The position numbers and the translations under genes were made by a program. A stretch of DNA of 34,193 bases from Seison nebaliae (Eukaryota): positions 1 through 34,193 of the forward strand of contig JALJEE010002886.1 in assembly GCA_023231475.1 (NCBI GenBank). Direction: 5' to 3'. Positions 3,374-31,972 of this stretch are shown here, piece after piece (position 1 is the stretch's first letter; the number at the start of each line of letters is the position of its first letter). A model generated the notes under the pieces. That model was not told where the DNA came from. It ran no database searches and worked only from the letters and a program-made list of their open reading frames with translations.

Positions 3374-5577
3374 TTATTGAAGTATAGACTGTAAAGAATA
3401 ATCTCTTAATTGATTTTTATTCTCATCTTTTCTTTTTGATATATTATTCATGATGGACGTTGTTCCATTGGAAGTTGCTGGTAATGGTTGTTTAGACATT
3501 AACGATAACAAATATGAAACATTTTCATTGAAAGATTTCTGATTTGGTTTTTCCTGTTAAAAGTGAAGATTTAGAATTTTACAAATATAATATGAAAATG
3601 AACTTTCTCGTTATTTCCAATTGGTTTCTTTTCATTCAGTTCCTCTGATAATTTCATATGTTTTCTTTTTCCGTTATATTCATGGTTCTTATTGTCACAT
3701 GAATCAGACGAGTCAGATGTGGGAGATGGATGACTACGTTTATTAAACTCATTTGTAATTGATGGTTTTTGATTGATGCTGGTAGAAGATTTGTTATCAA
3801 TAGATTTGAGAATTGCTGAGAAATTTGATGAGATGCCGTTCGTGTTTGAACTGCTTTCAGATTTGTTTAAATCCGTCTTCTCCGATGGAATTATTGTAGG
3901 CAACGGCCAAAATGAAGGTAAACCATTAATTTGATTTATTTTCGAAAGAAAATTACCAATTTGTAAGGAGTCGGAAGTCGAAGAGTCTTGAATATTAGGA
4001 ATATTTAATGTGCCGTTCACTGATGGCATCGATAATTTCATTTTTTCCAAAATATTATCAAATATCTCATTTCTGCAATTCGATTGTAATTTCAACTGAT
4101 TTTGTTGTTGTTGTTGCTGCTGTTGTTGTTGCTGTTGTTGCTGTTGTTGCTGTTGTTGCTGTTGTTGAAATAGTAATTGTGTGGCGAAATGTTTAAGAAT
4201 GTTACTAGTCATCGAAGTTGAATTATCTATTTTCTGATTAGAATCGATTGATAGAGTTTTACCTTCATCGCTTGTTGTCGAAGTAGAAATTTGGTCGACA
4301 TCAATGGATGATGATGTTTGATCATTATCTGTATCATAATCTTTCACAGAATGAGATTCTAACATTTTACTAAACTTCTCGTCATCCAATTCATCATCTT
4401 CATCTTCATCATCAACTTCATCATCAATATCATCTCCAAACATTTCTCCATTATTCTTCATTCTTGTTCCGTTTTCTTTACTCATCTGCCGATGACGTCG
4501 ATGTTTATTCGAATCGAACAATTCTAATGGATAAGAGAATTGCGGATTACATCCATAATTACCATATTGCTTCTTATTTTTTAATGCTGCTGCTCTATCC
4601 CGCTGACGTCGATTTTTGAACCAGTTACCAACTTGTGTGGAAGTGAGTCCAGTCGCTTTTGCTAATTCTTTTTTTTTCTGAGGATTCGGATAGGGGTCTT
4701 GAAGATACCATTCTCTTAAATGTGTTCTGGTACGTTCTTTGAAACAATGAGTCTTCTGTTCGCCATCCCAAATTGTATTTGGCAAAGGGAACTTCTTTCG
4801 GACTCGGTATTTATCAACTGGACCAAGAGGTCTACCACGAATCCTCTCCGCTTCAATGTAATGCGCTTCTAACCACATTGCTTGTAATTTAGCATGAACC
4901 GTCATCGGTTTACTATTCGCATTAGCTGAAGATATTTTATATACATCATTTGGAAATTTATTTTTTTCAATAATCGAATATAATTCCTTAAAATTTCCCG
5001 TATGATAAGCGATAACCGCTCGACAACGTAATACAATGGAATTTTGAAGATATAATCCATTGTATTGAGGAAGAATGGAGAGAAAGTAGAGAAATTGGGC
5101 CAATTTCTCATAACATTCATCTTCTTCTAATTTCCTACAATAATCGATACATTTCTGTTGGGAACCAATTACATTAAACGGCGACTCCACCATCAACTTT
5201 TCCATGTTCTGATTGTTGATTAGAGTCATATTCGTACCATTGTTATTTGTATTATCAAGATTATCGTTAAATTCAGTCAAATTCACTTTCTTCTCATTTT
5301 TAATTAATTCGTTGTGATGATGTGAATCGTTCAAATTAGTTGGAATGGAGATATTGGTCGATTTCGACAATTCTTTCTCTTCGTCATTATGAATAGTTTT
5401 ATTCGACATGATCTCGTTACCGTTAACTGTGTTTGGGACTAATTGTTGTAATAATGTTGTAATATTATTATTAGTTAAGATGTTACTCCAAACATTCATC
5501 GTTGAAGAGAAATCGACAGAAGAAGAATCTAATGTAGTCGTAGTTGAATTAGATGAAGTTAACGATTGTTCATTCAT
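3374..5577 (-). CDS. Six3/6: Six3/6 (Optix-like) homeobox transcription factor, ~717 aa; exons 5577-3604 and 3553-3374
   Basis: SIX domain ([32 protein letters not shown]) and homeodomain with Six3/6-diagnostic QKTH and [12 protein letters not shown]. Intron 3554-3603 (GTTCAT..ACAG) joins an open exon ending DYSLQSILQ*. Confidence 0.97.
4102..4167 (-). repeat. CAA/CAG repeat encoding a 22-residue polyglutamine tract in Six3/6
   Basis: Mixed ttg/ctg triplets on the + strand, in frame with Six3/6. Confidence 0.95.
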
Positions 5578-8077
5578 ATTTTATCCATCAATTTCGAATA
5601 AATCTACTTAGAATAAGCAATTCCCAAATAATCCATATATTAGCATTATAATTAGTTATGTTGGTTAACAGAGATACTATTAATTGGAAATCGAAGAAAA
5701 TAATTGGAAATTCAGAAAAAATTGATTGGAGATTCGTATTCGTGCATCAACTAACTGATAACAAAAGAAAAAAGGGGAATCGTCGAAAAAGAAAAGAGAG
5801 AAGGTTGCTTGTCGTTATCGTGTAAATTTCAACCATATACATTACGAGTAACAAGTAGCGAAAAGGCCAATCAAAAATCTAGAATACGAAATAACTTTTC
5901 CGATTTGAACGAATATTTGAAGGATTACTTCAGAGAGGAATAGAAAGAAAACTCAGAACTATATGAATATGAACAACGTCATCTTAATAATAAAACAATA
6001 TACATCCAATACATTAAATTGGTGTAATATAATAAAACTGATTAAATTAAAATTAATACGAAACATTACGAAAATTATTAAAATTTATATTAATTAACAT
6101 TTCTAAATGTTTATCGATTAAACATGTTCAACTTATTTTTGATTGAATAAATAGATAGTTGGGAAAGTAAACTGCTTCAATCAATGTCGTACAAAAATCA
6201 TTTGGTTGGAGAACTGGTTGCCGGATAAATTTTCCATTTGGTATTGATTCATTAATAAGTGGATATAGTGCAATTATTTTACTTGTTTCACTTACACCTT
6301 GAATGAATGATTGAATGGATAGATAGTTGTAGATAAATTATTAAATGAGTTGACAAAATGAAAACAATAGGGTAAGGATAGACGTATCTGATTCGAGGTT
6401 CTTCTACGTTGAGCCTCGAAGTAAGAGAAAAGAAATGTTTCATAATTACATGTTTGACACCCAAAACAACTAATGTGTCTGATGCAAACTTTAGATAAGA
6501 ACTGAAATGTGCCATTTTCCTAATAGTTTCGATAAAGGAATATATCGATATGCAATTGGTTGAATGAACTATAATTGCTGTAATTATTTATTTTGGAAAT
6601 TGATTATATGAATTGATTATATCGAAGAATTGGACGTATGAAAGAAAACTTCCAATATAGTCAAATGAATGTGTCAATTGAAAACAGGAAAAATCATAGA
6701 AATCGATAAGGACCAAATCAAATAGTCTTCTGGTGGGCGGTGAACATGTTATTTAACAATTGAAATTTAAAGTTTGTTGATTATTTCCTGTTGGTTGGGA
6801 AGAAGACGAAGAAGAAGACGCAGAAGAAGAAGCAATTATTTAAGAATTCTCCTATCGATGTTTAAAGGAAATGGAATCGGTTTGAATAATGTCTTGATAA
6901 TGGAGAACATTGAATATAAGTATATGTTATCGTATGAATTAATCGCGGATAAATATGTCATCAGGAGAATGGGTTGAAAGCTCACGAAATACGATATGTC
7001 GTTCTGAAATAAATATGTCACATATTTCGGTAGGATGACAATACGGAATTGTTTTCGAAGAAAATTATGTGCATCTCAAATTCAGTTATCATCACTGATA
7101 TTCTTCATTATTCTCCTCTAAATTATCATTCGCTTATGATGAATGATACATAAACAAACACAACTCAGATCTTGCATACAGATATGCGATCGGCTACATG
7201 TGAATAAGAGACTCATAATAATGTATCGAAATATTTCTTACGGTTTTCATAATTTTTCCTATGCTACATCTCATATGCTCTCATTCGTCTCAATGATTAT
7301 TCGAATAGAAATAATGAGACTTGTCTCAAATTTTGTTCTTCTACGGTTGGCATTCAATTACAGAAGCTACTACAAGAGACGAATCTAGTTCGATAACAAG
7401 TGTGTGTGCAATATTTTCGGGTGGAAAATAACAAATTGACATGATATGAGATTAAACATATAGAATGATAAAAAATGCCAGGTTCATAAATTAATGAAGC
7501 CATCATCATTTTTGGTTGAATCGATGGATCGATCAATAAATAATGAGAAATGATCGTCTTATAATAATCGGTGAATATATATATATAATAATCGACTGCT
7601 CTCCGATATGGAAGTAAGAAGATTGAGAGGAGAATGCATATCCATTGGATAGAATGAAGTTACAAGTAATTAGGAAATCAGAGAACTATGAAGGAAATGA
7701 TATCAACATTCTAATGAATATGTCGAGACGAGGGGAGGAAGAATGCATTCTATTACGTATTTTTGTATGCATATCATTCGAAGAGGATAGTTTTTGTACA
7801 TTAATATCTGCTCAACAAATCCCAGTTAACATTAGAGTTATGTGTTTGATTTAAGAAGTACCACATATACAACTATAATTGAACAGACGATTATGATAAG
7901 TGATCATAATAAGTATCTCTGTTTCCCATACGAGTTAAATATTTCAATTGAATGAGAACTTCGAATAAGCGATTCGTTTCTCACTTTCTTTTCTTCTCAC
8001 ACCAACAAAGAGGAAATGAAAGAGAAGATGTAGAAGAAACATAATTATGAATAATTAATCGAATAATCTCAGAAATT

Positions 8078-8306
8078 TGAAGTGGCTCGAAGGGAGAATA
8101 GGCAGTCTTGATTCGAACTTTGCTGCCTCCGGAGTCATTTCAAGTCGTGATGTCTTTACTACTGTGTGGCGCCCATTACAGTGGTACTATCAAAAAAAAT
8201 TGGCAGCTTGAGATCTTTCGGCTGCTTCTTTCTCCTACCACTTTGTTTGACTGTGGAACGAGGGTGCTATTGAATGAGGGAGAGAATTCTTATTCGTTCT
8301 ACTTCA
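8078..8306 (+). ncRNA. Candidate structured RNA of unknown family (closed multibranch fold)
   Basis: GC-richer island. Terminal stem TGAAGTGG/CTACTTCA and internal stems AGGCAGT/GCTGCCT, TACTACTGT/ACAGTGGTA, GGCAGCT/GGCTGCT, TCTTTCTC/GGGAGAGA, CCAC/GTGG. Mismatches are mostly G-U on the + strand. Confidence 0.45.
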
Positions 8307-11300
8307 TAAATTAAGAAGTTTCTTACTGGCATATTGATCACTTGTTCCCTTGTGTCATATCTCTCTATTTTATTTCATTTATACGTCTCTATTCTATGTA
8401 CACATATCATCAATTGATGCTCCACAACTACTTACTTACCAACTTATCTACCAGTATTCAATACGTATTCTAGTTAGTTGGGTGAGCTTGCTTACTTACT
8501 TATTTACTTATAATCATCAGAATGGAAAGAAATGAGAAATTCATACAAAGAAACGTATAAAAATATATGTTTGATGATGTCTAATAGATATTGAGCAGTT
8601 CACATTACGATTTGCATTTACAGATATAAGAACATAGATCTTTATGGCTGGAGTAATTCTTCTGATTTTCTGCTAATCTTAACATATGGTAATTCGCTAA
8701 AGGCGAATCGGAGATTCTCATCTCATTATTTAGAAATTGCCGTTCCCTCTCATATTTTCACATCATGATCAATTGGTAGTCAATATAGGAAAGTAAGAAG
8801 TTGACGATGAAGAAAGAAAAGGAGATAGAATTCGCATACATATAAATAAATTAAGTTGGAAGCAATAATAGTACTCGTAATTTCAATTTGCAATCAATTA
8901 GCATATAAGTAGTGTCACTCGTAAGCTGTTCTCAGTTTTCGGTCAAAATAATGAAGCTGATCAATCCCCTTTTTTCATTTCTTCACTGTTGGATATCAGC
9001 AGAATCATCTTTCTACTTCTTCACTTAATCATGCGATGAAGAAAACCAAACGAACCTTTCCCTTCCAATTCTCTTCCAACAAATGACAAATGAAATAGTG
9101 GAACTGAATTGCCTAATTGGTCGTTTGACACCAAATTTGAGAACATTGGTAACTCTATATTTGTCTTTCATATTAGAAGTTTCAATAGCAAATAAAGAAG
9201 AACAACAGACATACTCCTAATTCATCTATTGTTTCATTGGAAATTACTGCTATTGGTTTCGATCGTAGCTCGCTTGTATTCTTTACACTTATTCAATGGA
9301 CTAGTTTTCGCAGAAAGGAAGAAGTTGACGAAGTCGAAGGAAACTTTTGACAAAAGATTTCCCCAATAACTTTTTTCTTTACGATTATAATTTCATTTAC
9401 CTTCTTCATTGGCAACCTTTCTTTTCGAAAGTTCGTTTCATTTTCTGATATACTAATGTAATAGACTAACTTCCACCGGATTGAACTTCTTCGCTCATTC
9501 TCTAATTGTTGGAGTCGAAAATGAGACATGCGATTAAACGAATGATTCCTTATTCTGTGCTTTGCCGACAGCCTATCATTGGTGCCCATTTCGTGCATAA
9601 GAACTTTGTCAATAATTTGTCAAAACGTCTTATGATTTGTTAGTAAAGAATGCACAATTATGAATTAATACAATACAATATAATTGTGAAGTCTTGTAAC
9701 AATTGGTTGGAAGAAATTTAAAGAGTCCTCATATTCAAGAAATATTATTACGAGTACTTAGTTGATATACCTTATTTTTGTTTACATAATCCTTGAAACA
9801 ACCATTGAAAGTAATTGTAACAAATAATCTTTGATGAAATTGAAGTTACTTCAATAATGAGATTTAAAACATTTAACCAGTTTTATACCTTTCGAATTGA
9901 AACGTAGGAAATAAGTTCGAATCAGCTAAATAATTCTTTTGCTATTAAATTGTATAAATTTCAAAGAAGATTGTATATGTATTCTGTATAAGCTAGATGG
10001 GAAATGAAATTAAATTCTTTAAAAAAAATTGAAACCGGCTGAAACTTTGATGACTAGTAATTTTCGTTAATATTTTTTAAAGACTTAAACAACATAACTA
10101 TATTTGCCAACTAGTGTTCGCCTTATTAGGAGAGAAGCCATATGGCTAATTGTATAAGTGAAAATATTCTTATTCAAATTCAATTATTTGTTGACCAGAT
10201 TTATAACATAAAGAAAATGGAGATATGGATTGTTTATGGATAGACGGATGGATGGATAGTTTAAGCCCGATACAGATCTTTATTTCTACTCATACATTTC
10301 TCATATTCTAAATGAATTATACATCAATCATTATCAACAACAACAAAAACGATAATAACAACAATACGAAGAGAATGATGAAGATTATAATTCTTGATGC
10401 ATCAAAAAATGGCAAATAATAAGGTGAATTGATGGGGAGAATGATGTATTATAGATAAATTAACGATATGCGTACATCATTGTTTTACTTGAGTTAACAA
10501 GTAATGAACACATTTTCGTCAATTGATTCGCTTTGCACAATAGATTAGAAAAGCTTTCGTCTACTATTAGATTGTACCATTTGAATGAATCGATTCGTTA
10601 AATTCAAAATATTAACAAGCTTCTCATCTTTTCATATTTTTCTTATATTATAAAGGATCTCGATTAACTTTCGAAAGTTTATCATCGTTCTGTGATCCAC
10701 ATTAACTCATCACGACAATTACCATTTGAAGTTTCGTTAATTTATATCGATTCTCTTATATTCAATTACGTCAAAACAAAACTGATTAATTAATTTATCC
10801 GTAAAAATACTTTTTATTAACAAATTATTGATCATCATTATTATTTAGTTTCATCTTCCCTAAATCGAACAACATAGAAGACCGAACTTTACTTATTCGT
10901 CAATTGAAATATGTCGAGATAAATATCATTTAATTGAAGCCGTTATTTATCGTCGAGTTTTTCAATCTGATTTTTATAAGAAATGTGAAGGACGAAATTA
11001 AAGAAAATAGAAAAATTTCGGGAGGAAAATTCATTCAAAATATTTTATGACAACCTCATCGTCAGTAGATGATTTAATTGTTTTTTTGGGAGACGAGAAA
11101 CGAATAATTGAAGTTGAATGAACATAGAGACGGTTTTGTTTTCTTTTTCTCATTCCAATTTATCGATAATGGATGAAAACTCCTCGTCTCATCGAAAATA
11201 TTTCATAAACATTCTACACTTGAAAAGAAGAACTTGTAGATTTGATTGAAAAATCTTTCCGGTCACTCTTGAAATACTTTCTTCGATCAGTCAATTAGAT

Positions 11301-11992
11301 GACCAATTAAATCGTTTTACATTTCTCAAATTCTACTCCCATGTTCGTACGAATAGAATTTCACGAATATATTCAATAAAACAGAAACAACTCTTCCACT
11401 TCTTAAACAACGGTAACTCGTGATAAACAAATATTCTAATTTACATGTCTTCAACATATCAAAAAGTTTTACGAATTTTCTAATTCCATTAGATTTTTTT
11501 TAACATAGTTCCTTTTCGGTTCTATCGCCTTACTCTGATATACGTCTTCATTTTACCTTTGAATCCGAACGAAAAGTTCAAGCAATCAATTTCTATTCGC
11601 TTCCGATTTGATTATTTACTACAGGAATCGTCATTTTGACTCAATTCAATTAAGTGGGAACATGCCTCAATTCACACCTCAATAAATAAATGAAGTTATC
11701 GTTCCTACTTTTAGAAATTATTCCACTTCGTTTCATTCTGATTCATTTAATCTTTCTTTATCAGATACAAATATCAAAAATAATCTGATAATATCTCTCT
11801 TATAATCATAAGAATAATTTGAGCAAATAATGTAATTAATAGAATTATCAGATTGAACAATTATCTTCCAAGGATGCATTTTAATTTACTAATAATATTT
11901 TATTCATACACTAATTCATTCCCCTCAATATATAGTCGAACCATAACACTTTTTCGATTTTAATTTAATTTCCCTTCATTTTTTATATTAAA

Positions 11993-12169
11993 ATGAATTT
12001 TCTGTTATATCATTTTCTTATCTTGACCATGATAATCTTCTTGATAAGAAGGGCTGATCAATTTTCGTTGAACGATCGAAAGAAAAGAAATGTTGAAGAT
12101 TTGATGGATGAAACAATGCCCATGGTAATTAATGCAATGCATCCCGAATTATTAGATAGAAACAAATAA
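11993..12169 (+). CDS. Small secreted peptide precursor, 58 aa (signal peptide + RKKR furin site)
   Basis: MNFLLYHFLILTMIIFLIRRADQFSLNDRKKRNVEDLMDETMPMVINAMHPELLDRNK*. TATATA ~60 nt upstream, AAAATG start context, AATAAA at 12267. Confidence 0.65.
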   Translation: MNFLLYHFLILTMIIFLIRRADQFSLNDRKKRNVEDLMDETMPMVINAMHPELLDRNK

Positions 12170-12339
12170 AATTTAATTGAAGCGAACTGCACATCGTATT
12201 GGCATGATTAAAGCATATTTCTAATACAATTTCTTCATAATTTTTCAGTTAAAATTTTTTTGCGCCAATAAAGCATTTACAAAAATTATTTTTAAAAAGA
12301 CATTCACTTAACATAAATTATCGTCGATCGAAATAGATA

Positions 12340-12521: not shown

Positions 12522-14353
12522 TCATACATTCTTCTTTAAACTTGCTTTAATCCATTCAATATAACTGGCAAGTCTTGTATAGCCACCTTTTGTACCCTTA
12601 CATGATCGATCTAGTGGTCCAAAACTTACAATACCCAACTGCCTAAATACGTTGTTGACATAAGAGAAAGCCGGACCTCCACTGTCGCCCTAGAAAGAAT
12701 ATTTTTTATAAGTTAGAAGAGAAGTCTAACTTGACATGCGTCTTTCACTTCATTGGAATTTCCTGCACAAAATGCTTCTTTCGTATCTGTAATACTACAA
12801 GAACTTGGAAGTAGCACAGGTATTGTAACTTTCTTCAGTTTAGTTGATATAGCTCCTTTTCCATCTTCATCTGTAAGGCCCCATCCTAAAACAGTGAGAT
12901 TCTGATTAGATGTCGGTAGTTCGGTGGTGTCATAATTTGAGTTTGGCAAACATGTGGGTCTTATTCCATCATTATAAGTTAATGGGGAACATAATCGAAG
13001 GACAGCAATGTCGTTTTGTAATATTTCCGTGTTTTCAGTAAATTTTGAGTGCTAGAATCATAATTAGAAATTAATAAATGGAGAAAAAAATTTAAAGTAA
13101 CATATAGTACGTAATCAATTTTTCGTTGGAAAGAAGATGATGTTGTTAGGGAGTTTAATCTTACACTTGATTTTGTTAAATTAATGTTCGATGGAAAACA
13201 ATGGGCAGCAGTCAATATCCAGTGTTTATTAAGAATCGTCCCTCCACATAAATGATCATCACCAGATATGCTCAATTGTAGACTGACGACTGCAGGATAA
13301 TTCGAAATATCTCCAACATTAACACCACCAACTATGCGTCCCGAATTTTTACACCAATCCGAATCATCCGGTAAAGTTTTTGCATCATCGGTTTCTACAG
13401 ATGAACATTTTGAGTTTCTTAAAATACTTGATGTAAGAATGGGTGCTTAAAAAATATAAAGTTATTTAAATATTTGAAAACTTTCTAAAATTCTAAACCC
13501 ACAGTAGATTTGGTAGATGTTGTGATTTGTGTGGTAGTTATTGTTGTTGTTTTAGTAGTTGTAGCGGTAATAGGTTGGGTGGTGGACTTCGTTGTTGTTT
13601 CCGTAGGTGACTCGGTGGTAGCGGAAGATGTAGTCTAAAAAATATAATTAAGAATATTAAATTAAATGTAAATTTGACAGTAGGTGTGGTTGATGCGGTA
13701 AAAGTTGTTAGGGTAGAAATAGTAGAAATGGATGTAATTGTCGTTATGGCAGAAGTAGTTGAAGTGGAAATAGTTGTTATTAGGGTAGTTAAAGTAGTGG
13801 CGATTGTTGAAGTTCCGATAGTAGTTGGATTGACAGTAATAGTGGAATTAATTGTGGTAGTAATATTGGTGGTAATTGTGGAATTAAATGTGGTTATGTT
13901 CTGAGTTAATAATTTAATTTATTCAAACCGATTATAAACGAAGTACAAACTGTCATAATAGTTGTGGTAGTTTGATCGTCATCATCATCTTTTGTGATGA
14001 AATAGATTATTAAACCGGTCGCCGCTAGTAATAATAATGTTGCAAGAACGAGAGATACGATTAAAGGACTAAATAAATAAAGTATCTCATTATAATTTGT
14101 TCTATAATGAATGACCCAACATGTTCTTCCGAGGCCCATAATACGGACTAATCGGATAATTTGAATAATTTACAGGATAGCCAGAATTGGGATATGAAGA
14201 ATAACCGGCTCCATGATAGTTCCCCGGATTATTAGCAGAATAATTATTGGGATAAGGATATGACGATCTATACGTTGTATATTGGGGATAGCCGGAATAA
14301 CCATTAGCATTGGGATAATTATGACGATGATAAGTTGTGAATGTTTGATACAT
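12522..14353 (-). CDS. Type II transmembrane trypsin-like serine protease with Thr-rich mucin-like stalk; introns 14069-14120, 13901-13950, 13635-13678, 13446-13498, 13052-13101, 12690-12730
   Basis: Spliced product: Tyr/Pro-rich N-terminus, TM helix (LIVSLVLATLLLLAATGLIIYFI), Thr-rich stalk, R-IVGG activation site, LTAAHC, NDIAVL, DACQGDSGGP (S1 Asp, trypsin specificity). Confidence 0.93.
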
Positions 14354-14466
14354 AATTCTGATATTAAAGTACCTTTCACTATTAATCCTTCAAATGTATG
14401 TCTTAATAGTTAAGGAACATTCAAACTTCATCTTAATTAATACTATCGATATTAAAATTCATCATC

Positions 14467-15587: not shown

Positions 15588-18500
15588 ATGTTGAATGATC
15601 AAACAGATGAGAATGGTGGAATCTTGACTGATATTCCATTAGATGATGAAGATATTTCTAAAGTTCCAACTTTACCACCAGTGGCCTCATCATCAGTTGC
15701 ATCACAAAGATTTGATCCACTACAAATGGAGTCAATGATTCCTCCACAAATGATAAATATAGGAAATGAGCGTAATCTGAATAACATGACAAATCAATTT
15801 ACTAATTTAACGACGATAATGCCTCCCATGCCATCACAAATTTCGTCGATACCACCAATATCGAATAATTTTTCTCAACAACCTCCTCCATTAATCAATC
15901 CAGATGAATTATTGAAAAAATTTGTTCCTTCATCTATAATAAAATCGAAAAATCAATCCGAAAATGATCTGAAGAGTAAGTTGTCAAATGATGAAAGAGA
16001 AAGAAAACCGTCTCCATTTGAAAAACATTTAGTGAAAGATAATTCACGAGATTCTTCACCATTCTCTTCATCAAACGATTTAAAAAAAGAGTTATCATCA
16101 GGAATTCAATCGCATTCTATGAGTCATGAAAATATTGATAACATCTATCTATCTGATCAATCATTACAGAATACAGGAGAAGGAAAATTAGATTTCAATA
16201 GTTCTATGAATCAGAATGAAAATTTGATAACAACAAATCCATATGATGGATCATCAACATCCATCGATAAACAAATACCGTCTGAAATTCCATCATTAAC
16301 TTCGTCAAATTTTCAAACAACATCAACTTTACAACAACTATCATCAACAACGTTTTCAAGTCATGAAATGGTTTCTTCATTAAATCCAGTGACATTGATT
16401 GAAAAACAAATATTACCAGAAATTCCTTCATTAATTGGTAATAATTTTCAACCAATTTCAACTATACAACAACAAACATTATCAGCAATTCCACCTATTC
16501 AATCCAGAAATGTTTCTACGACATTATTAAAAGGAGATTCAGGAGAGAAACCTCCAACAATGTTCTCTGGATATGGTTCATCTCAAACTTCTTCCGGTAT
16601 GGTTCAACCGCCATTTTCAACAACACAAACTGCAATACCAGGAATGCTACCAATGGATGGTAGACTTCCTTCATTGCAAGCGATATCAACAATGTCATTG
16701 AATCATTCATTCAATCCTCCATTTGAACAATCATCATCCATGATTCCGTCAAATTCCATGAATCAGAGACCACCCATAATAGATTCAACTACTCTCACAT
16801 CGTCGAGAATGCCACTAGGGCCAATGAATCAGTCTTTAAATAAACTTCCGCCAACATCATCAATTGCTCCTTCACCAATGATGCCATTAGGATTAATGAC
16901 GCAACCTCCGTCTACGATACACACTTCTTCAGCAAGTCAACCTCCATCAATAATGCCTGAAACAACGATAAATCAACCTCCTTCAATGATGCCTCCATCG
17001 TCATCAAATGAACCTTTATCGTCAATAAGTCCTTTGACAATGAATCAATCTCCGATGATGATGTCACCATCATCAACAATTCAATCTCGTTCTATGGTGT
17101 CGGAACAAACATCAAATCAGCCAAAACGATTAATGGGACAAGTTCCTCCAACAAATGTGTCAATAGTACCAGGTCAACCTCCCATAACAATGTCATCAAA
17201 TTCTTTTGGAGAATCTCCAAATATGATGCCACGTAGTTCGACAAATCAACCACCATTTAAGGGGGCAACAAATTCTGTTGGACAAGCTGCATTTCCAATG
17301 CAGCAAACCACATTGGACCAACCCCCAATGATGCCACCAGGTTCGATGAATCAATCTTTAAATATAATTCCACCTGGTTCGTTGGGTCAGCCACCAACAA
17401 TGATGCCACAAAGTGGATTGAATCAACCTTCTAATATGATGCCACCAGGACCATTGGGTCAACCGTCAACAATGATGCCACCAGGATCAATGAGTCAACC
17501 GTCAACAATGATGCCACCAGGACCATTGGGTCAACCGTCAACAATGATGCCACCAGGAACTATGGGCCAGCCTCCGAATATGATGCCACCAGGACCATTG
17601 GGTCAGCCACCAACAATGATGCCACAAAGTGGATTGAATCAACCTCCTAATATGATGCCACCAGGATCAATGAATCAACCACCATTAATAATACCTCCAG
17701 GATCAATGAGTCAACCGCCAACAATGATGCCACCAGGATCTACGGATCAGCCTCTGAATATGATGCCACCAGGACCATTGTGTCAACCACCAATAATGAT
17801 GCCACAAAGTGGATTGAATCAACCTCCTAATATGATGCCACCAGGATCAATGAGTCAACCGCCAACAATGATGCCACCAGGACCATTGGGTCAACCGCCA
17901 ACAATGATGCCACCAGGAACTATGGGCCAGCCGCCTACAATGATGCCACCAGGACCATTGGGTCAGCCACCATCATTGATGCCACTAGGAGGAATGAATC
18001 AACCACCATCAATGATGCCACCACAAATATCTGGAATGCAACCGAATCAAATCGTTCAACCAGGAATTCAAACAATGCCACCATCAATGGGTGGAATGAA
18101 TCAACCAGGTAATCAGCAGTTCAATCAAATGGGAGGAGGAGTACCACAATCAAGTGGCCCAAAATTGAGTATGATGCCAGATAAATTATTAATTGAAGAA
18201 GATAATCGATTAAAACATGGAGAAAATGAATTATTCCGAGATGATGTAATTGGAAATGTTCCTCCACTCGTTACTACAAATTTCAAATATACTTCCTCCA
18301 GAGGTCGATGTCATCCAGCATTCATGCGATGTTCAACTTACGTCATTCCGACAACACCCGACATTTCTCGACGAATGGATATACCGATTTGTACCGTAGT
18401 TTCTCCTTTTGCTTCAGTAGACGATTATCAAATTCCGTTAATCAATTGTGGTGCTGATGGTCCTGTCCGTTGTAAGCGTTGCAAAGCATATATGGCACCA

Positions 18501-21062
18501 CAAATGCAATTTATTGATGGTGGTCAACGATTTCATTGTGTGTGGTGTGATTCGTTTACAGATGTTCCGAATGAATATTTCAATCATTTAGATCATACCG
18601 GATGTCGAATTGACAAATGGCAACGAGCAGAATTATGTTGTGGTTCATTCGAATATACGACGAACGATTTATATAAACATAATAATCGTAAAGGAGGACC
18701 AACGGCATATTTATTCATGATTGATTGTGGTCAAGAAAGTATTCAGAAAGGATTACTCGGATTAATTGCTCATAATCTTTTCGATCAGATCTTAGCTCAA
18801 TTGCCCAAAGATTCGAATGAACAATACTCAAAATGTCAAATTGCTATTGTGACTTATGACACGAAATTCTATTTCTACAAATTGACAAAAGGATATAAAC
18901 CTCAAGTGATTATCGTTAACGATTTGGAAGATGTTTTCATTCCATTATGTTCCGATCTTTTCGTTGATCTGAATGAACATGAATCTGATTTACGACATCT
19001 CCTCCAACAATTACCCGAAATGTTCATCAATAACAAAGAGAATAAATCAATGCTCTCTCCTGTACTCCAAATTGTACAACAAGCATTTAGTTCTACTCGA
19101 TTGGTCGGTCGTGCATTTATCTTCCATACTAACTTGCCTACAATGGACCTCCCAGGCAAATTGGACATCCGTGACAACAAACATATTCTCGGAACGGAAA
19201 AAGAGAAAGTTCATTTTACCAAAATTATTCCTGTTCATCTTTTTTCCTCAATATTTTTAGACTATTTTAGTTTCAGCAACGAATGAATATAAAAAATTGG
19301 GAGAAGTATGTGTTGATAATGGTGTCGGTATCAATATGTATCTCTTCCCAAAAGCATATGTTGATATCGCAACATTAAAAGATGTGACAGCGACTACTGG
19401 TGGAGAAATTCGTTTATATTCTGATTTCCAAGTTTTTTCTTAATAATATTTTATTATTTAAATTTGTATATTATTAGGTGGAAAGTGATGGGGAACAATT
19501 TTTAATTGATCTACAAAAAAATATCAAGAAACGATGTGTCTATGATGCTATTTTACGATTGAGAACGAGTCCTGGTTCGAATAAATTTCTTCTAAGGAAA
19601 ATTAAAACAAAAATAATTTTATTTTAAAGGAATTCGACCTGTTGACTTTTTGGGCAATCACCAAATGTATAATTCAACCGATGTCAATTTAGCGATTGTA
19701 GATGAAAGCAAAGGTTTCTCTTTTTTCAAATTAAAATTTAAAATATAATTTAAAAAATAAATTTAGCTGTGACAATTGTGTTGAAACATGATGACAAATT
19801 ATCAGAGGAACAAGAAATCTATTTACAAGTTAACAATTTTATTCTAAATAAAGTGAGAAATATAATTTATGTTAATTAGGCAGCATTGTTATACACAGAT
19901 TTCGATGGAGAAAGGAAAATCCGAATTCATAATCAAATATTGAAAGCATCTTCAGCATTTGAAGTGTTATACGCAGCGTGTGATGTAGATGTCATTACAA
20001 ACTATTTATTGAAGAGTAGCATCAAATGTTGTTTGGAGACATCACCGAAAATTTTGAAAGATGAACTAATAAAAAAAGTATCGAACATTTTCACTTGTTA
20101 TCGAAAAGAATGTTCGAGAAGAACATCATTAGGATCATTGATCTTACCCGATACCATGAAGACATTGCCATTATTCACTTGTTGCATTCTACGATCGAAT
20201 GCTTTCGGTTTTGGAAATACGATTACAGTAGATAGTAGATCGGAATTAATGACAAGTTTGATGGCATCGAAAGTCTATCAATCCAATCATTTCCTTTATC
20301 CAAACATCTATATTGTAGTTAGATATGGATTTTGATTCTATCAATTTCTAATCAATTCCATCAATAGACGAGTGATGAATCAGAGAAAAAAAATGAAAGG
20401 AAACATGCCGGTTTGTCTACCCCAGAACAAAATGGAGATGATTCGAAAAAGAACAATGAAAATGAGAAGGAAGAAATAGCAGAGAATGATTTTAAAGAAA
20501 GTGATCTTCCTCCTCGAATTCGTTGCAATTATGAATCGATGAAAAATAATGAAATATATTTATTAGGTTCATATCAATTTTATTCATTTAAATTAATTAT
20601 TTTAATTTCATAAATTTTAATAGAAAATGGTTATCGAATGTATTTATGGATTGGAACTGAAGTCGAACCGAAATACATCACTGATATTTTTGGTGTGAAA
20701 TCTTTACAACATGTTCAATTAGAGATGGTTAATCCAATTCTTTTATGCTTCTAACTAATTTCATTCCTTTTCAGTATAAACGTTTACCGAAAATTGGAAA
20801 TGACATTTCTATTCGACTGAATAATATGATCGACTTCTTAAACTATCGAGCACAACGATCCATGAAGGTTGGAATTTTATTTAAATTAATAAATGAATTT
20901 TAACAAAATTTATTTTAGTTCTCAATCGTAAAACAACGTGAAGGTACAGAAGGTTTATTCAGAAACATGTTGGTGGAGGATCAAGGAATTCATGAAAACT
21001 CAACTTCTTATGTACAATTCTTATGTTCGATACATGCAAAAGTAAGATCTGCGATTAATTGA
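15588..21062 (+). CDS. SEC24C/D: COPII coat subunit Sec24C/D; introns 19209-19260, 19432-19477, 19575-19629, 19714-19766, 19829-19879, 20318-20367, 20567-20623, 20728-20774, 20868-20918
   Basis: VPPLVTTNF, zinc finger GPVRCKRCKAYM...FHCVWC, YFNHLDHTG, vWA trunk (YLFMID), LYTDFDGERKIRIHN, LILPDTMKTLPL, C-terminal LVED...SYVQFLCSIH. Frame is continuous after removing 9 short introns. Confidence 0.97.
17319..18023 (+). repeat. Coding minisatellite, 36-nt / 12-aa unit (QPPxMMPPGxxx), about 20 copies, in the Sec24 N-terminus
   Basis: Recurrent atgatgccaccagga units; higher-order 180-nt periodicity (17581 vs 17761; 17641 vs 17821). Confidence 0.95.
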
Positions 21063-21501
21063 ATTGAATGGATATAATATATGAAACGATTTTCATATCA
21101 TCATTCAACTTTCAAGAATAAAAGACGAATAAACTGGAAGAAAATTATTTAAAGTAAGAAAACTTTCATTTTCTCTATTTTTCTGCTCTCATTTAATCTT
21201 CATAAAAACCATTTATCAACAAATACACATTATTATTTATTCGACTATTTCTTTCTTTTGTTTGTCTCGTCATAAAATTTTTCCGTTTCCGTTGACATTG
21301 TTTTGACATTCGATTCTAAATGATTCATTAAATCTCATTAAACGTTCTTTCGCTTCTTCTTTCATTCGTAACGAAAAGATTGAGAAGAGTTCTATTTGTT
21401 TAGGAAAAAATAACTGAGATGAAATGGAACCGTCAATGACCGTCCAATTGAATAATATTTTGTGAAATCATTTATCTTTTTGTTCTGTTGATGAGATCCA
21501 T

Positions 21502-22065
21502 TTATTTTCCATTATCCATTTTCTTCGTCCGTTCATTCGTTTCATTTCGGGGAATGTTAGAAGGAGAATTGTGAAAAAGATTGATGGTAGCTGCGGGATC
21601 ATTCAACGTTAAAATATTAACAAGTGAAGTGAATATCGGTTCACTGATACTGATGGTGGAATCATTAACGAGAGTCTGAATGATATCAATCGATTCCTCA
21701 CTCACTTCACCACTCAACTCTCCACTCACCAATTCACTTAACAAGAGAATTAAATCGTTCACTTTATCTTGTTTCGATTCTTCGTTCATCGTTTCCAGGA
21801 AGTTGGGAAGAGATAAATATTGAAGTTGAATTTCCATCGACAATTTCTCATTCTCTAATTCTTTCATCTTCGTTTCAAGTTTCTCAATTTTCTCCTCTTG
21901 CAACTGAATATCCGAGTCCACACTCAAATCATTTTTTATACGATTGACTAATAAATCCTTCAATTCATTCGAAATGACACTGACATCACAATTATTTGTC
22001 ATTATGTCTAACGTACTTCTTTCCTTTTTTGATGTTATAAGCTTAACTTTCAAATATTCGAACAT
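21502..22065 (-). CDS. Uncharacterised acidic coiled-coil protein, 187 aa, apparently intronless
   Basis: Long ORF in AT-rich DNA with heptad segment LQEEKIEKLETKMKELENEKLSMEIQL; no family recognised. Confidence 0.6.
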   Translation of the reverse strand: MFEYLKVKLITSKKERSTLDIMTNNCDVSVISNELKDLLVNRIKNDLSVDSDIQLQEEKIEKLETKMKELENEKLSMEIQLQYLSLPNFLETMNEESKQDKVNDLILLLSELVSGELSGEVSEESIDIIQTLVNDSTISISEPIFTSLVNILTLNDPAATINLFHNSPSNIPRNETNERTKKMDNGK

Positions 22066-22654
22066 AAATTCAAAAATAACTTTGAAAATTTAAATAATTT
22101 GTTGTTGCATATTATTACGTGATCAGGTTAGTCATCTTCAATGTTCGAAAAGGTTGCATCCATGAAGGGGAGAAGTTAGGCTAAAAAGAAAACGTGCGTT
22201 TCAATTGATAACAGAGAATCTTTATTGCAAAGCGAATGTAATAACCGAATGATTGATTATATTCGTTTTAATTATATAAACTTGTATAAACTGTAATAGG
22301 TTATATTGTACTGAATTAAAGAATTTGCTAATACAACATTCTGTCTATTTCTTTTACTGATTTCTATTGGAATTCTTGGAATATGGTATATGAATAATTA
22401 TTTAAGAAATTTATTCAAATATCATTTTCTTTTCTAAATTCCTCCTCGCTTCTTCAAAGAACATTTTTCTTTATTAACTATTCTATAAAATTTTATCTTT
22501 TATTCTTCAAATAAAAGAAGAAACTTCGGTAAATTTCATTTTGTTTTTTGCGGCTATTCTCATTTTAATTTGAAATTTATATATTTATCTTTACTCCCCA
22601 TTACGCCTGATATACACTGACACGCATATACGTATACATACAGATATCCCTGTA

Positions 22655-22679
22655 CATATATATATATATATATATATAT
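22655..22679. repeat. (AT)n microsatellite
   Basis: About 12 uninterrupted AT units. Confidence 0.9.
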
Positions 22680-25367: not shown

Positions 25368-25531
25368 ATACGATGATCGGAGGATGAATGTTTCACGGTT
25401 GATGTTGTTTATTTGTATTCAATTTCATATGAATCCCACTCGCTGAAGTTCAATTCATATTTAATTTGAATTCATTAAATTTTATTCCTTATTTCGCATC
25501 ACCGGGTTTCACACATCCTCTGACTTCGTAT
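25368..25531 (+). ncRNA. mir-36: miR-36 family precursor 1; predicted mature 3p UCACCGGGUUUCACACAUCCUC (25499-25520)
   Basis: 5' end UCACCGGGU is the miR-35/36 family signature. Star arm GGAGGATG...CGGTTGATG at ~25379-25404 and basal stem ATACGA/TCGTAT pair with it; loop ~90 nt. Confidence 0.72.
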
Positions 25532-25574
25532 CAACAACGACTACTTCTCTTCAATCATCATTTCAATTCAAATC

Positions 25575-25708
25575 GAAGATTCATTGCTGGAGAGTGTATC
25601 TACGGGTCGACATTGTCTTTGTACTCATTCTTTTTATAAGAATTGTCAAGAATTTATTCTTCTTACTTTATGTCACCGGGTACTACACTTTCCCACAAAG
25701 ATTCCTTC
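25575..25708 (+). ncRNA. mir-36: miR-36 family precursor 2; predicted mature 3p UCACCGGGUACUACACUUUCCC (25673-25694)
   Basis: Same seed. 5' arm TGGAGAGTGTATCTACGGGTCGACA (25588-25612) pairs with TGTCACCGGGTACTACACTTTCCCA; basal GAAG/CTTC; loop 58 nt. Confidence 0.78.
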
Positions 25709-25806
25709 ATCTCATCATTCATTTAATTTTAATTGATTTAATAAGCTAAATAAAATTTTATATATCGAAAATTCGAGAAACTCTTTGAATTTTCTGGTGA
25801 ATTCTA

Positions 25807-26374
25807 TTACAAATTCATATCGACATCTTTCTTCATTGAAGCGATCCATTCTTTAATCTTATCTTTCGGCCATGATTTGTGATTCGTTATCAAAGTTTTC
25901 ATTTTATCCGAAAATTTGTTCATAAACTTCTTAATCGGATGATTGAATCTTGTATCGTCTAACTCGTCCGCGAAATTTGACAATTGATCTATAGGAAAAA
26001 TTTGAGTAGAATTTCGGTTATTAATCGAAGAAATTTTGAAACTTTGATAATGTTTGAATTGAATAGCAGTTTCCGGCGTCCATTGATGTTTTAATGCTTT
26101 AACAATAAATGACTTATAATTGTCCATGAATTGATTGAAATCATGTACATTGCCAGTACTTCGTTTACCAAAAAGATTTGAGAAGAAAGTAGTCAGAAAG
26201 TCTAAATTTCATAATGTTTACAAAATTAAGTGTAAAAAAAATTTAAATAAGAAAAAAACTCATTTTTGCTGGTTGAATAACATTGTCATGTATAAATTGA
26301 GTAATATCAGTTTGACGTTCTTCATGAGCGAAGACTGCACAAACCGTTATTGTTAAAATAATTAAAATTTTCAT
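25807..26374 (-). CDS. Secreted pre-pro-protein, 169 aa, with GKR amidation/cleavage site; intron 26202-26259
   Basis: MKILIILTITVCAVFA signal peptide, then HEER-QTDITQFIHDNVIQPAKMNFLTTFFSNLF-GKR, spliced in frame onto ORF 25807..26127. Confidence 0.8.
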
Positions 26375-26560
26375 TTTCTCTGATTTTCCTTCAAGTCAAA
26401 ATGAAGTTTATCAGTTTATAAAATGATCATGCTTCGTCCGTTAGCAGATGGAAGAATTCTCAGCAGATTCTGTGAGATAGATTCTGGTTGTGGAAAATAG
26501 TTTTTGGAAAAATTCAGGACAACGTTTTATTTAATAGTGAAAATGTGAAATGTTTTTCTT

Positions 26561-29500
26561 TTAAGAAGTTGTTGAATCAACTTTATCGTTATCAATTTCT
26601 TTTTTCCCTAAATGCTCCTCAATGTATTGGTGGAGAATGTCTGGCACATTAATATCACAAGAATTGATATTCATTATTGGTTCCATAGCTCTCAATAAAG
26701 AATTATACAAATTGGGAAATAATGATTCCTGTTGAGCTAAAATTCCTTTGATTCGATTTCGTTCCTGGTATAATTGAATTGTAGGAAATTAAGAAATAAA
26801 TACAAACTTTTGGAGCAGAGAAACAACCTGGACAATTTTCACTGATTATCGGAAGGTTTGACGACAAAGCGAAATGTTTCAAATCTTGTTCACGACAATA
26901 GACTAAAGGACGAATTATTCTTAAATCTTTCTCTCTGGAAAAAATAAGAATTTTTATTTATCATATTCTCTAACTTCACCGTATAAGATGCTTTGATCGT
27001 TCTCAGTAATCCATTATGAAAGATTGACATAATAAAACTGGAAGTAAGTGACAAATTAATAATAAAAAGTGAATGAATACTCGAACCTTTCTGCTAAATC
27101 GTCCAAATGTTGTCCCAATGCTAAAACGTTCCATCCTTCTCTTCTGGCAGCCGTGTACATTCGTCCTCGTTTCATTCTCGAACAGAAGGAACAGATTGAA
27201 CGACATTCATCTCCAAGATCTTTCGCTTGTTGAATAATATCTGTTAAATTATTTATAAAATAAAAAATATTGGGAATTAAATAAAAAATATAACTTTGTT
27301 CTTCGTAAAGATATGGTACATTCAATTCCTTCAAATATAATTTTAACGGTGACGGATCGTAATCTGCGGATTGTGGATCGATAGTCAATGCACCAAGTTC
27401 AAATTGAATATTCTGAAATTGTTTCAATATTTCGAATAGTTGATAAATATAGTAGTTAACTTGTGCTTCCAAATAAAATTGGAGAAATCTCATTGATTGG
27501 AGTAATGTCAACGAATCCTTCCCACCTGATAAACAAACTAGTACTCGATCGTTATTCCGGATCATATCAAAATCTTTTATCGCCTTACCATAAATGAAGT
27601 AATATTTAAATTAAGACGAATAAAAATAAGAAGAAAACTCTTAGAAATGGTAATCTGATAGATTTCGGCGGAGTGTACCATAATGATTTTCTTTCCATTT
27701 TCATTTCAATTTCACAATTCTTATTTTGGAGATTAGATGTAGAATCATTTACAATCTCATGAATATCATTTGTATTTGAATTTGAAATGAGTTCATCATA
27801 TTTCTTTACATTGAAACAAGAATTGTTCAATAATGAATCATCATTTATTTTTAAGAAAATTTCTAATTTATCATAAAATTCATTTGTCTTCTGATTAATT
27901 TCTGTGAGATCGAGTGATTTCTTTATTCCATTTAATATTGATACATAATGATCTCTTTCCGATTTATTCATCAAATGAATTGCTGATGTGACTTGATTTT
28001 GTAAGAGGAACCATTGATAGTTCATCATACCATCGTCATCATCAATATTCGTAGTAATTTTGATATCATTCTCAAATTTACTTTTTTTCGGATATTTAAT
28101 AATCATTTGAAGAAGATTAATTGAGTTGATGAGATTTTGATGAAAAGACATATCGATTTTCTTCTCTGATATATTTTCATTTTTCATTTGAATTTTATTA
28201 TTATCGAAATGGAGATTATTCAAATAAATTCGATTATTATCCAGTTTCCATTCTCGATGGACATATTCCCCAGTTTGTACATCATATCGATAGAGTGGTA
28301 AGAAGAAACTTCCAAATTTACCAATAAACTTTAAAACTTCCATCACATAACATAATTCTTCCGTTGTCGTAATATAAGAGAGTGAGATTCTTGTGAAACC
28401 GGGACGATAAATCTCATATGAAGGAAATTCATTTTTTCCTTTATTCTGGTGATCATTAACATCACTAAAAAATTAATGTTACATGCTTAAATTTGAAAGA
28501 AAATTAACGTTCCGATCAATAATAATTTCTCGAATTTTTTCACTAAATCATTCGACATTCCAAGAAGATGTTGTGCATAAGGACCAGCACACGAACATCC
28601 ACCACGACTACATATCCCGAATAAATCATTCAACAAACTAGTTACGAAATTGTAATGAAGATATTGGTTGAAAATTCGGTTGGATGAATTGATTCGATTT
28701 TGTAATTGGACGTTGATCAAGAATGAAAATATTGGAAGTTTTCTCTTGAATTTCCCTAATAATTTTAACGAATTCGATTTTTTTTGAAATGTTTGCACAA
28801 TATTGTCTATCAAATATTGATCTCTTCTCTCTATTTCATCAGTTGATAAAAGTTGTTTGTTAACAAGCATGACCAATCCTGCTCTTATCGATTCCATAAT
28901 AGCTGCTGTTCCACCTTCTTCACGAATCTCTTCATTTTTTAAATAAATCTCCGAATCTTTTCGTACCTGTTCAATTCGTCAATAATGAAAATAATGGATT
29001 ACTTCTGACCAATTGTATTGTGAGAGTACTAACGAAAAATACGCTTCCACCACCACAATTGAAAGGAATTGGATTGTTCAATAATTTCTTTTTAACAATT
29101 AATATTCCTGGAGTTTGAGGACCACCTAAGAATTTGTGCATTGAAAAATACATTGCATCTTTTCTCGTCAAATATTTCATTTGTCCATCAACTGATGGAT
29201 TCATATTGAGTGAAACATAAGGTGCGGACGCACTATAATCCCAGAAAACTAAAGAATCATTTTCATGCATTATTCTCGTGATCAAATCAATCGGTTGTTC
29301 AATTCCATTAATATTCGATGCACCATTAAATGTTCCTAAAAGGGATTTTGATATTGAATGAAATTTTTAAAGTTTAATGAAGAATTTTACCGATTATTTG
29401 ACGAGATGATGATGATTTTCTTAATTTAATCAATTCGCCTTTCAATTGGTCAATGTCAATTAAACCGGAATCAATATCTTCATTAATGATGATCATTTCT

Positions 29501-30094
29501 TCACAAACTTCTTTCCATGGTAACAGATTCGAATGATGTTCGAACAAAGATGAAATTATTATCTAACAAAAAGGTTTTTTTTAGATAATTGATATCAATT
29601 TGAATTAAACCGGTTTAGTTTGAAGATTTAGACAATGTATCAATAAATGAACAGCAGCTGTAGATCCACTTCCAATGAATATAACAGCATCCCCATCATC
29701 TGCATTGGTACTACTTCGAATAATTTGTCGTGATTCATCTCGAAGCATCGTCGTAATTAATGCATTTCTATTTAATCTCGTATGAGTATTCGCATAAAAT
29801 GGAAGACATTCTCTCAAAATAAATTGTTCTATAAATTCCAATGATTGACCTGATGCTGCATAATCACAATAAATAGCTAAAATAAATGAAAAATAGTGAT
29901 AAAACAGTTTTGTATTAAAAGACAGTTCAACTTTTCACTTGGCCGAAACATGTAGTAAATTGACCATTTTCTATTAACTGACTTCTCAAATATTTTATTA
30001 ATCTTTCGTAATATTGTTCGTTGTGTTGGGAAGCATCAAATATTATTTCAGATAATTTACCATCAACATGGTGGTAAAAATTACGATAACTCAT
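26561..30094 (-). CDS. Fusion protein: class V PLP cysteine desulfurase-like domain + TtcA-type PP-loop tRNA thiolase; introns 29877-29931, 29563-29610, 29336-29390, 28967-29033, 28465-28508, 27584-27638, 27413-27460, 27241-27294, 27038-27086, 26935-26974, 26765-26807
   Basis: N-half: YCDYAASG, YANTHT, EHHSNLLPW, DYSASAP, SMHKFLGG (PLP Lys), EEGGT, RGGCSCAGPY. C-half: DFDMI, LSGGKDS, ICSFCSRMKRG, LGQHLDDLAES, IIRPL, ENCPGC. One continuous spliced frame. Confidence 0.92.
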
Positions 30095-30356
30095 TGAATT
30101 TTACACGTGACAAATTTGGATTAGCTTCTATTTTAGAGTCGAATCGTTTAGTTGCAATAAATAATTTACAATTGTTCGTCATTTCAAATTTCGTATAAAT
30201 CTAAAAAACCATTTGAGAAATAATTGTACTTTAAAGAATCAGATAAATTTCATTTTAAATTGACAAATAGACGATAGCATTGAATAAATCAATTGAAAAT
30301 GATAAATTATTTTATTATAAGAAAGAAAATAAGAAAGAGATTTTTTGACATAATTA

Positions 30357-30512
30357 TTATGTGAATATTGGTAGTACAACGTTCATCAAGGATAATTCTG
30401 GACCTCCAGGATCTCCACCGGCCTTATAACCCATATAGATAACGGTTGGAACAAATCCAAAATAAATTGTTTTTTCTAAAATATAGTAAAGTTCTTCTGT
30501 TGTTGAATTCAT
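30357..30512 (-). CDS. TOMM7: Mitochondrial import receptor subunit TOM7, 51 aa (below ORF-track cutoff)
   Basis: YFGFVPTVIYMGYKAGGDPGGPELSLMNVV matches the TOM7 motif WGFIPLVIYLGFKRGADPGMPE. Confidence 0.92.
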   Translation of the reverse strand: MNSTTEELYYILEKTIYFGFVPTVIYMGYKAGGDPGGPELSLMNVVLPIFT

Positions 30513-30923
30513 GAGGGATTTCTTAATTTTTCGTTTTGAAATAAGAAAGGAGTTTAGATTTCAGTTGAAAACTATTTATTCAGTTTGAAAAAGTATTGCA
30601 CTATGATTCTGAAATTTCAATTATCATGAAAAGCCAAAGAATAAAATCAGAAGAAATTTTAAATTATTTTTCTTTCTTGGAACTTGAGAAATTTAATTTA
30701 TATGATCGAGCATTATATTCTCAAAGGAAGGAAATGTAATTTATGAAACGTATTTTTATCATTTTTATAAGATAAATTAAGAACAAACGTATTCGACTTT
30801 TGTTTATTAAAATACTAATTTAAATTTGATGGTGAATAATTACCTAGTTTGATAAATAAATGAATAATTAGAAATTTAGTTACTTTTGAAAAGCAGATTA
30901 TAATAACAAATTGTAATAAAAAG

Positions 30924-31972
30924 TTACTCGATGAACGGTATACCAGAGAAAGTGTTAAGACGATAAATGGCGAATTTGTTTTTGTATTCATTTTGTAATA
31001 AGTCATCTTCTAGTCTAATACGATTCTGGAAGAATTTCCATCCGACGAAAGTGAGAAAGAATAAGGAACAATAATTCTTTAGCATCAATTGACCTCCCAT
31101 AACCCAAAGAAGCCAACCGGCATAAGCAGGATGTCTCATATAATGGAAAATTCCACTAGTAACTAAATTGGCATCTTTGGTTGAACGACTTTCAAAATCA
31201 TCTTCAATAACATGAGAGAAATTTGAACGAAGAGAAACAAACGACGATTTTCTCAAGATCTCTCCTCCCAAAATCATTGCTAATCCATACCATCTTATGG
31301 AATTTGGAAAGATATCTTTACCAGTTGTCGATGCATAATGCATAGAGAAGAATTCGACACAACTTAATAAAATTGCCATATGATAATGCATCGAATGACT
31401 CATGAGGAAGGAATCATTCTTTAATGTTCTCGGCGTATAGAGAGCGGTGAATACGAATTCCGTCATATGAAATAGAGAAACGGCTGTACTATAAGTGAAG
31501 AACCATTTCCATGGTATACGTGCGTCTAAAATACCATACGTACTGGCGCCACATGCAGTTCCCAGGATACTACTTCTGACAAATATCTGAAAAGAAATAG
31601 TTTGAGAGAAAACACAAAAAAAGTATCAACTTCACTCAATCTCAATTTCGGATCAAAAAATTCTTCTCGTTTTCTGAACTTTCGATAGGAAATTAAAGCT
31701 GCGATCGTTCCAGCTCCAATGAGAAGAAGTAGAAACGGTTTTTGATATGAAGAATATTTGATTTCTTTTAAAGCAAATTTCACATTTTTTGTCCGAATGG
31801 CTTGTTTGAAGAATCTGGAACAAATTGATTTGATTGTTAACTTCTTTACATAATTTAACAGAATGAAAGACGAAGTAGACACAATACCACCGGCGAATCC
31901 ACCAATAGCTACATTAAGACACCATTCTCCATTATTGCGATAGTGTGCTTGCATATAATGCGCTGCGTACAT
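30924..31972 (-). CDS. ICMT: Protein-S-isoprenylcysteine O-methyltransferase, ~334 aa; intron 31587-31630
   Basis: SLFHMTEFVFTA, DSFL, GEILRK, NFSH, LVTSGIFHYMRHPAYAGW, FFQNRIRLED. Start at 31972 is inferred; a further in-frame 45-nt GTT..CAG intron near 31815-31859 is possible. Confidence 0.9.

Follow-up and report, generated by a model that had tools for sequence, protein, structure and literature searches.

Introns of the animal Seison nebaliae were analysed in a 34,193-nucleotide (nt) stretch of contig JALJEE010002886.1 (assembly GCA_023231475.1; the whole stretch is hereafter the window), and 31 of 33 were found to begin with GTT, with one GTC, one GTA and no GTG. This epizoic animal belongs to the rotifer-acanthocephalan clade, and its genome measures ~46 Mb (PMC8351084). 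The GTT rule on this contig is a real, RNA-backed variant of the U2-type donor (5′ splice site). A preliminary description, made from the sequence alone, had counted GTT in 27 of 29 introns over positions 3554-31630; its coordinates agree with ours, and 24 of the 33 introns are now RNA-backed.

Evidence for the introns

Transcript evidence came from Trinity transcripts mapped by GMAP (supplement 2 of PMC8351084; 19,906 rows, the figures given being those among the rows listed), with at least 19 rows on the contig and coordinates identical to those of the window. Gaps in these published transcripts, by which the removal of 24 of the 33 introns from mRNA was seen, defined 24 distinct introns of 39-67 nt, all on the minus strand. 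The preliminary description had looked to transcript junctions for a check; on this contig they gave 22 GTT donors among 24, one GTC and one GTA, and no set of other donors. Each gap had exactly one GT..AG option among its one to three equivalent placements, and 14 of the 24 permitted a single placement of any kind. GMAP reported 22 of these short gaps as plain deletions and only two as introns, so no splice model placed them. Circularity with annotation was ruled out, the gaps being placed by sequence identity and 22 of the 24 not having been called introns. STAR has a bias toward GT-AG ends and is indifferent to the third intron position (+3). It was with STAR that the RNA reads behind the Seison transcripts were first mapped (PMC8351084).

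The set of 33 was completed by nine introns from the NCBI model of Sec24. The NCBI proteins P0008 (Sec24) and P0042 (an aminotransferase/TtcA fusion) were mapped onto the window letter for letter, and their spliced maps held 20 introns, 19 of them GTT; the 11 introns mapped with P0042 equalled the transcript junctions exactly. The nine Sec24 introns, all GTT, are the sole plus-strand ones and have no transcript row; 33 homologues were found, to 11 of which eight of the junctions align without gaps, and the one at 20318 adjoins a gappy insert. Splicing extended the longest stop-free stretch of a protease gene from 155 to 535 amino acids and the longest frame of the ICMT gene from 233 to 352 residues. 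GTT introns occurred in seven genes, covering both strands, and are listed below by window coordinates (a slash marks the exon-intron boundary; UTR, untranslated region).

3554-3603, minus strand: intron of a Six3/6-type homeobox gene (SIX1_SD plus homeodomain), AAA/GTT, 50 nt; transcript gap
12690-14120, minus strand: trypsin-family protease, six coding introns, five GTT and one GTC (12690-12730, 13052-13101, 13446-13498, 13635-13678, 13901-13950, 14069-14120); transcript gaps
13635-13678, minus strand: the GTC exception, ACT/GTCAAA, 44 nt; transcript gap that can be placed in one way only
14388-14426, minus strand: intron 5′ of the first in-frame ATG of the protease (ATG read from the sequence), likely in the 5′ UTR, GAA/GTT..AAG, 39 nt; transcript gap
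19209-20918, plus strand: Sec24C/D, nine introns of 46-57 nt, all GTT; exact spliced map of P0008 and alignment of junctions with homologues
20318-20367, plus strand: Sec24 intron with a GTT donor and an in-frame GTA 3 nt upstream; GTT picked by the NCBI model, a choice that no transcript decides
21109-21163, minus strand: 3′ UTR intron of the gene at 21502-22089, AAA/GTT..AAG; transcript isoform gap, past the stop of the open reading frame (ORF)
21359-21414, minus strand: second 3′ UTR intron of the same gene, TCA/GTT..AAG; transcript isoform gap
25989-26042 and 26202-26259, minus strand: two GTT introns of a small gene with no Pfam match; transcript gaps
26765-29931, minus strand: class-V aminotransferase/TtcA-like fusion, eleven introns of 40-67 nt, ten GTT and one GTA; transcripts and P0042
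29336-29390, minus strand: the GTA exception, TCG/GTAAAA, 55 nt; transcript and protein map, one of the two GMAP-called introns
31587-31630, minus strand: intron of a gene of the ICMT family, GAA/GTT, 44 nt; transcript gap

Both exceptions in the preliminary description, the GTC and the GTA, recur here as transcript gaps. The GTA alternative it had noted 3 nt upstream of 20318 is indeed present, and the NCBI model uses the GTT; its length range of 40-67 nt has to be widened, the shortest intron being 39 nt.

Donor anatomy and the choice of T at +3

All 33 introns have GT...AG termini and fit the U2-type (major) class; the U12-type (minor) class was rejected, a GTATCCTT-like donor being found in 0/33. 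The 39-nt intron at 14388-14426 (minus strand) holds a 9-base match to the U12 branch-point consensus, beside a donor that is not U12-like; the match is probably due to chance. The donor signal reads A(A/G)/GTTN(G/A). At the exon end, position -2 is A in 21/33 (p = 0.0016) and position -1 is A in 19/33 and G in 9/33. Within the intron, +5 is G in 11/33 against a background of 4.6% (p = 1.4e-7) and a purine in 24/33, with T depleted, and GT stands at +5/+6 in 3/31. A at +4 and T at +6 were at background, with T at +4 in 11/33; position +5, first described as degenerate along with +4 and +6, is not simply so. Acceptors were of the three kinds named in the preliminary description, TAG (17), CAG (10) and AAG (6), and a T-rich tract is mildly developed. 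AAG ends all three UTR introns (14388-14426, 21109-21163 and 21359-21414) as against 3/30 coding introns. Intron bodies contain 4.6% G compared with 16.7% in the flanking exons, and the introns are 84% AT with T at 49%. A YTRAY branch-point motif was present in 18/33 introns against 18.2 in shuffles, which is no excess; weak branch-point motifs are common among animals. Isoforms that retain introns exist, the intron at 29563-29610 (minus strand) being kept in one transcript isoform.

Of the GTs in the window as a whole, a fraction of 0.409 reads GTT. T at +3 in 31/33 donors (Wilson interval 0.80-0.98) lies above this fraction (p = 1.7e-10), and so does the RNA-only set of 22/24 (p = 2.9e-7). 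A purine stood at +3 in 1/33 and GURAG donors numbered 0/33. Base composition predicts something else: A at +3 (1/33) is scarcer than the intron A content of ~35% would give (p = 1.4e-5), and T at +3 is more frequent than even the T content of the introns would give (p = 3e-8). Splicing from an unused GT to the same acceptor would produce an intron of 39-67 nt in 23 cases; these GTs were followed by A in seven, C in six, G in five and T in five (Fisher p = 2e-8), and GTs within intron bodies (n = 29) were followed by T in 11, A in 10, C in six and G in two. Since GTA is undepleted inside introns, the T at +3 does not reflect mutation bias. Among pyrimidines at +3, C is under-used (1/32 against 20% expected, p = 0.008). 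Selectivity at +3 is therefore T-specific and not pyrimidine-specific, with A, G and C avoided. The UTR introns, which have no reading-frame constraint, were GTT in 3/3.

A Brachionus Sec24 protein was searched against metagenomes and gave four loci, whose best matches are other Sec24 proteins, neither those of Brachionus nor that of Seison; the loci were accordingly used as outgroups only. One overlapping locus was left out and one had no intron in the match. The two that remain, animal-like by their Sec24 matches, show GTR in 7/8 donors.

A candidate reader of +3 and the competing explanations

Position +3 lies opposite a U1 pseudouridine at first and opposite U6 G44 later; in the prevailing register from cryo-electron microscopy, exon ends are set against U5 U40-U42 of the U-rich loop 1, the exact U5 register being disputed in the same paper (PMC8283771). 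Unchanged parts should favour GTA; therefore some reader of +3 has likely changed, and the changed recognition of +3 proposed in the preliminary description is favoured by the data, with T chosen and A, G and C avoided. As +3 accepts T only and avoids C, an A partner fits better than U6 G44. Our preferred candidate, to which we give slightly less than an even chance, is that the base of U1 small nuclear RNA (snRNA) opposite +3 (position 6) has changed from pseudouridine to A and reads GTT in the major spliceosome. Sites would then be read in the normal U1 register, with -2 A and +5 G retained; an A opposite +3 would pair with U alone, so that both GTA and GTG would be purged; and U5 loop 1 would pair with the A-rich ends of the exons. 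As there is no signal at +4 or +6, the remaining specificity would have to come from intron definition, through the small size of the introns and their U-rich bodies poor in G. Pairing was scored by simple pair counts against the U1 5′ end. Among GTT sites only, pairing in the canonical register separated 31 true sites from 26 decoys (area under the curve (AUC) 0.74, p = 8e-4); a model with A at U1 nucleotide 6 reached an AUC of 0.83 over all sites, a circular figure not counted as support. On the wider scale, one base at the core of the snRNAs, either position 6 of U1 or G44 of U6, may have been recoded to read +3 U, and GTR donors throughout the genome, tens of thousands in number and some of them ancestral, may have become GTT without a rigid consensus; this is possible, and we lean somewhat against it.

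Several points weigh against the GTT rule as a general trait and against a changed U1. All counts come from a single 34-kb contig, and nine of the 33 introns depend on a gene model (Sec24) of unspecified evidence. The A at U1 position 6 is a prediction; an Rfam scan of the window gave nothing at the gathering score and six sub-threshold, chance-like matches, none of them a U snRNA, and supplement 1 of PMC8351084 has no text on snRNA or splicing. Splicing also removes the GTC intron and the GTA intron, either of which would mismatch an A at +3, the GTC site having almost no other U1 pairing. Fritillaria, with the most altered animal splice sites, keeps the U1 5′ end, the U6 ACAGAGA box and U5 loop 1 strictly unaltered (PMC13326754), and in yeasts, Giardia and Trichomonas +4 changed while U1 did not (bioRxiv 10.1101/2022.06.08.495308).

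In the main alternative U1 is canonical and U at +3 is imposed later, by a change in the U6 ACAGAGA box (G44 to A), in snRNA modification or in a protein contact (PRP8, U1C, LUC7, SNRNP27 or similar). U1-type signals are weak on the contig (-1 G in 9/33, +4 A and +6 T at background) and the U5-type -2 A and U6-type +5 G persist; AAG acceptors (6/33) hint at a broader protein-level change. Fritillaria altered modifications and U2AF and not snRNA sequence (PMC13326754), the Entamoeba authors point to additional pairing of U6 ACAGA that is open to donors rich in U (bioRxiv 10.1101/2022.06.08.495308), and donors without a +4 A bias are those favoured in Caenorhabditis elegans when METTL16/SNRNP27 function is lost (PMC11347140). 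The METTL16/SNRNP27 data concern +4, however, and not U at +3 (PMC11347140), and an unchanged G44 should take C at least as well as U, whereas C is under-used. We rank a later reader second and consider it rather unlikely. A tolerant, unchanged machinery, which would recognise introns by their length and AT richness while T-rich drift or indirect selection produced the T at +3, would suit the short, T-rich introns, the lack of a branch-point excess and the retention of introns in some isoforms. Drift nevertheless predicts about a third A at +3 in place of the single case observed and no T excess over the intron share, on which grounds AT drift was ruled out as the cause of GTT, and 12 in-range GTA/GTG competitors are ignored. 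Definition by length and AT content, entertained in the preliminary description as the main means, does not by itself explain the purge of GTA, since GTA is as common as GTT in intron bodies (10 against 11). Tolerance is judged improbable.

It is very improbable that the contig is unrepresentative, or that a single mobile element which happens to begin with GTT gave rise to its introns by recent insertion. Donors were read on one contig only, but seven genes on both strands agree. No sequence is shared between introns beyond shuffles (best pair 32, shuffles 29-41), there are no terminal inverted repeats, and the one to three placements per intron leave no target-site duplications, by which an introner-type transposon origin was rejected. 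For a short gap to be reported as an intron by GMAP, good scores are normally needed at each end under a model trained on human data, and the two introns it called in the window are the most standard-looking, AAG/GTTCGAGT and TCG/GTAAAA. The share of short transcript gaps written as introns was therefore taken as a proxy for genome-wide typicality, uncalibrated and not itself a reading of +3. On other contigs 10/114 short gaps of similar length (median 49 nt) were called introns compared with 2/24 in the window (Fisher p = 1; hand tally of the rows listed), and by this uncalibrated measure the comparison suggests that the window is typical of the genome. Least probable of all is a canonical U1 paired one base downstream, so that A at -1 and U at +3 pair. 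Such a register exists in humans (Roca and Krainer, as cited in PMC11162779), and -1 A (19/33) and +5 purine (24/33) would suit it. Against this, G stands at +6 in 2/31 and GT at +6/+7 in 1/31, -2 is A rather than a pyrimidine, and among GTT sites the AUC was 0.61 (p = 0.08) compared with 0.74 for the canonical register; the shifted register was rejected for want of the displaced consensus (G+6, T+7) and for poor separation of true sites from decoys.

Relation to known systems and reach beyond the contig

The exon before a human shifted-register site of the kind described by Roca and Krainer reportedly often ends in A. These sites (Roca and Krainer 2009, cited in PMC11162779) resemble the Seison donors in starting GTT; they are rare, and what follows in their consensus is displaced downstream by one base. 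The Seison contig lacks the displaced G(+6)T(+7). With the metazoan consensus MAG/GURAGU (PMC11162779) the contig shares GT..AG ends, -2 A, enriched +5 G and short introns, but GURAG donors amount to 0/33 as against 44% in C. elegans (PMC11347140). A close parallel, and the precedent for a changed U1, is Entamoeba, where almost every GT-AG intron has U in place of a purine at +3 and GUUUGU(U) donors have co-evolved with a U1 ACAAAC (Roy and Bowser, bioRxiv 10.1101/2022.06.08.495308). Entamoeba is, however, an intron-poor protist with a rigid motif of 6-7 bases, 88-90% of its donors being GUUUGU (bioRxiv 10.1101/2022.06.08.495308), whereas the Seison donors are fixed at +3 alone, show no more than background at +4 and +6, have G at +5 in a third of cases and follow A-rich exon ends, so that a rigid U+4, G+5, U+6 of the Entamoeba type is not found. 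Seison genes are also intron-rich (11 introns in a gene of 991 amino acids), and the U1 change is reported in Entamoeba and predicted here. Fritillaria borealis is likewise an animal with a U2 spliceosome that recognises altered intron starts, in its case across the genome; its introns have lost their terminal dinucleotides, snRNAs are conserved, U2AF is duplicated and N6-methyladenosine is re-patterned (PMC13326754), while the Seison introns keep their GT-AG ends and differ in the specification of a single inner position.

Few features of animal splicing are as conserved as the +3 purine and the U1 5′ end. Where +3 has become U in an animal with many introns, the question arises of how donors throughout a genome and their reader change together, the more so as Seison, unlike Entamoeba, combines many introns with otherwise loose signals. 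No description of Seison donors was found in the literature, in a search that left most subscription journals outside and with intron-survey supplements that may hold a Seison logo; within the same coverage, literature on rotifer, bdelloid or metazoan atypical donors yielded no animal GTT case. Gene finders and aligners trained on other animals misread GTT introns, as GMAP did in writing 22/24 as deletions. One protease junction falls between CQ and GDSGGP, an intron position of vertebrate trypsin genes; if shared by descent, it would mean that old donors were converted. The trait may be older than Seison.

Over 25700-33200, contigs assembled from sequencing runs were of DNA type, with the whole stretch in one piece in three of four runs and none in the fourth, and they held no spliced joints. 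In runs X1, X2 and X5 there are contigs of low depth whose divergence from the window is ~15-20% and which may represent a second lineage of the species; 8/12 of the indels listed for them fall inside two introns. Together with sequenced relatives (bdelloids, monogononts and acanthocephalans), a second lineage could date the switch.

Other observations along the window

By Pfam, the window holds genes for a Six-type homeobox protein, trypsin, Sec24, a class-V aminotransferase with part of a PP-loop domain, Tom7, ICMT and KTI12; the Seison nebaliae proteins SNEBB_010895, SNEBB_010898 and SNEBB_010899 correspond to Sec24, the aminotransferase/TtcA fusion and ICMT, respectively. Homologue searches with KTI12 and ICMT taught nothing on splicing. 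Between 1000 and 2720 broken frames look by eye like a decayed non-long-terminal-repeat retroelement (endonuclease-like at 1449-1886), and no Pfam match was obtained there at E 0.01. The region 5600-12100 has no transcript row among those listed and no ORF above ~110 residues. In the minus-strand gene at 21502-22089 the transcript reaches 20935, in antisense overlap with the last Sec24 coding exon, and isoforms of this transcription unit (20935-22089) splice or retain the two 3′ UTR introns. The first coding exon of Sec24 (15588-19208, plus strand) is a single exon of 3.6 kb with a long Pro/Met/Gly/Gln repeat, and it has no introns where the outgroup locus L003 has several. The fusion gene (26561-30094, minus strand) joins a class-V aminotransferase to a TtcA-like PP-loop domain, and the same pairing occurs in proteins of Penaeus, Homarus and Orchesella.

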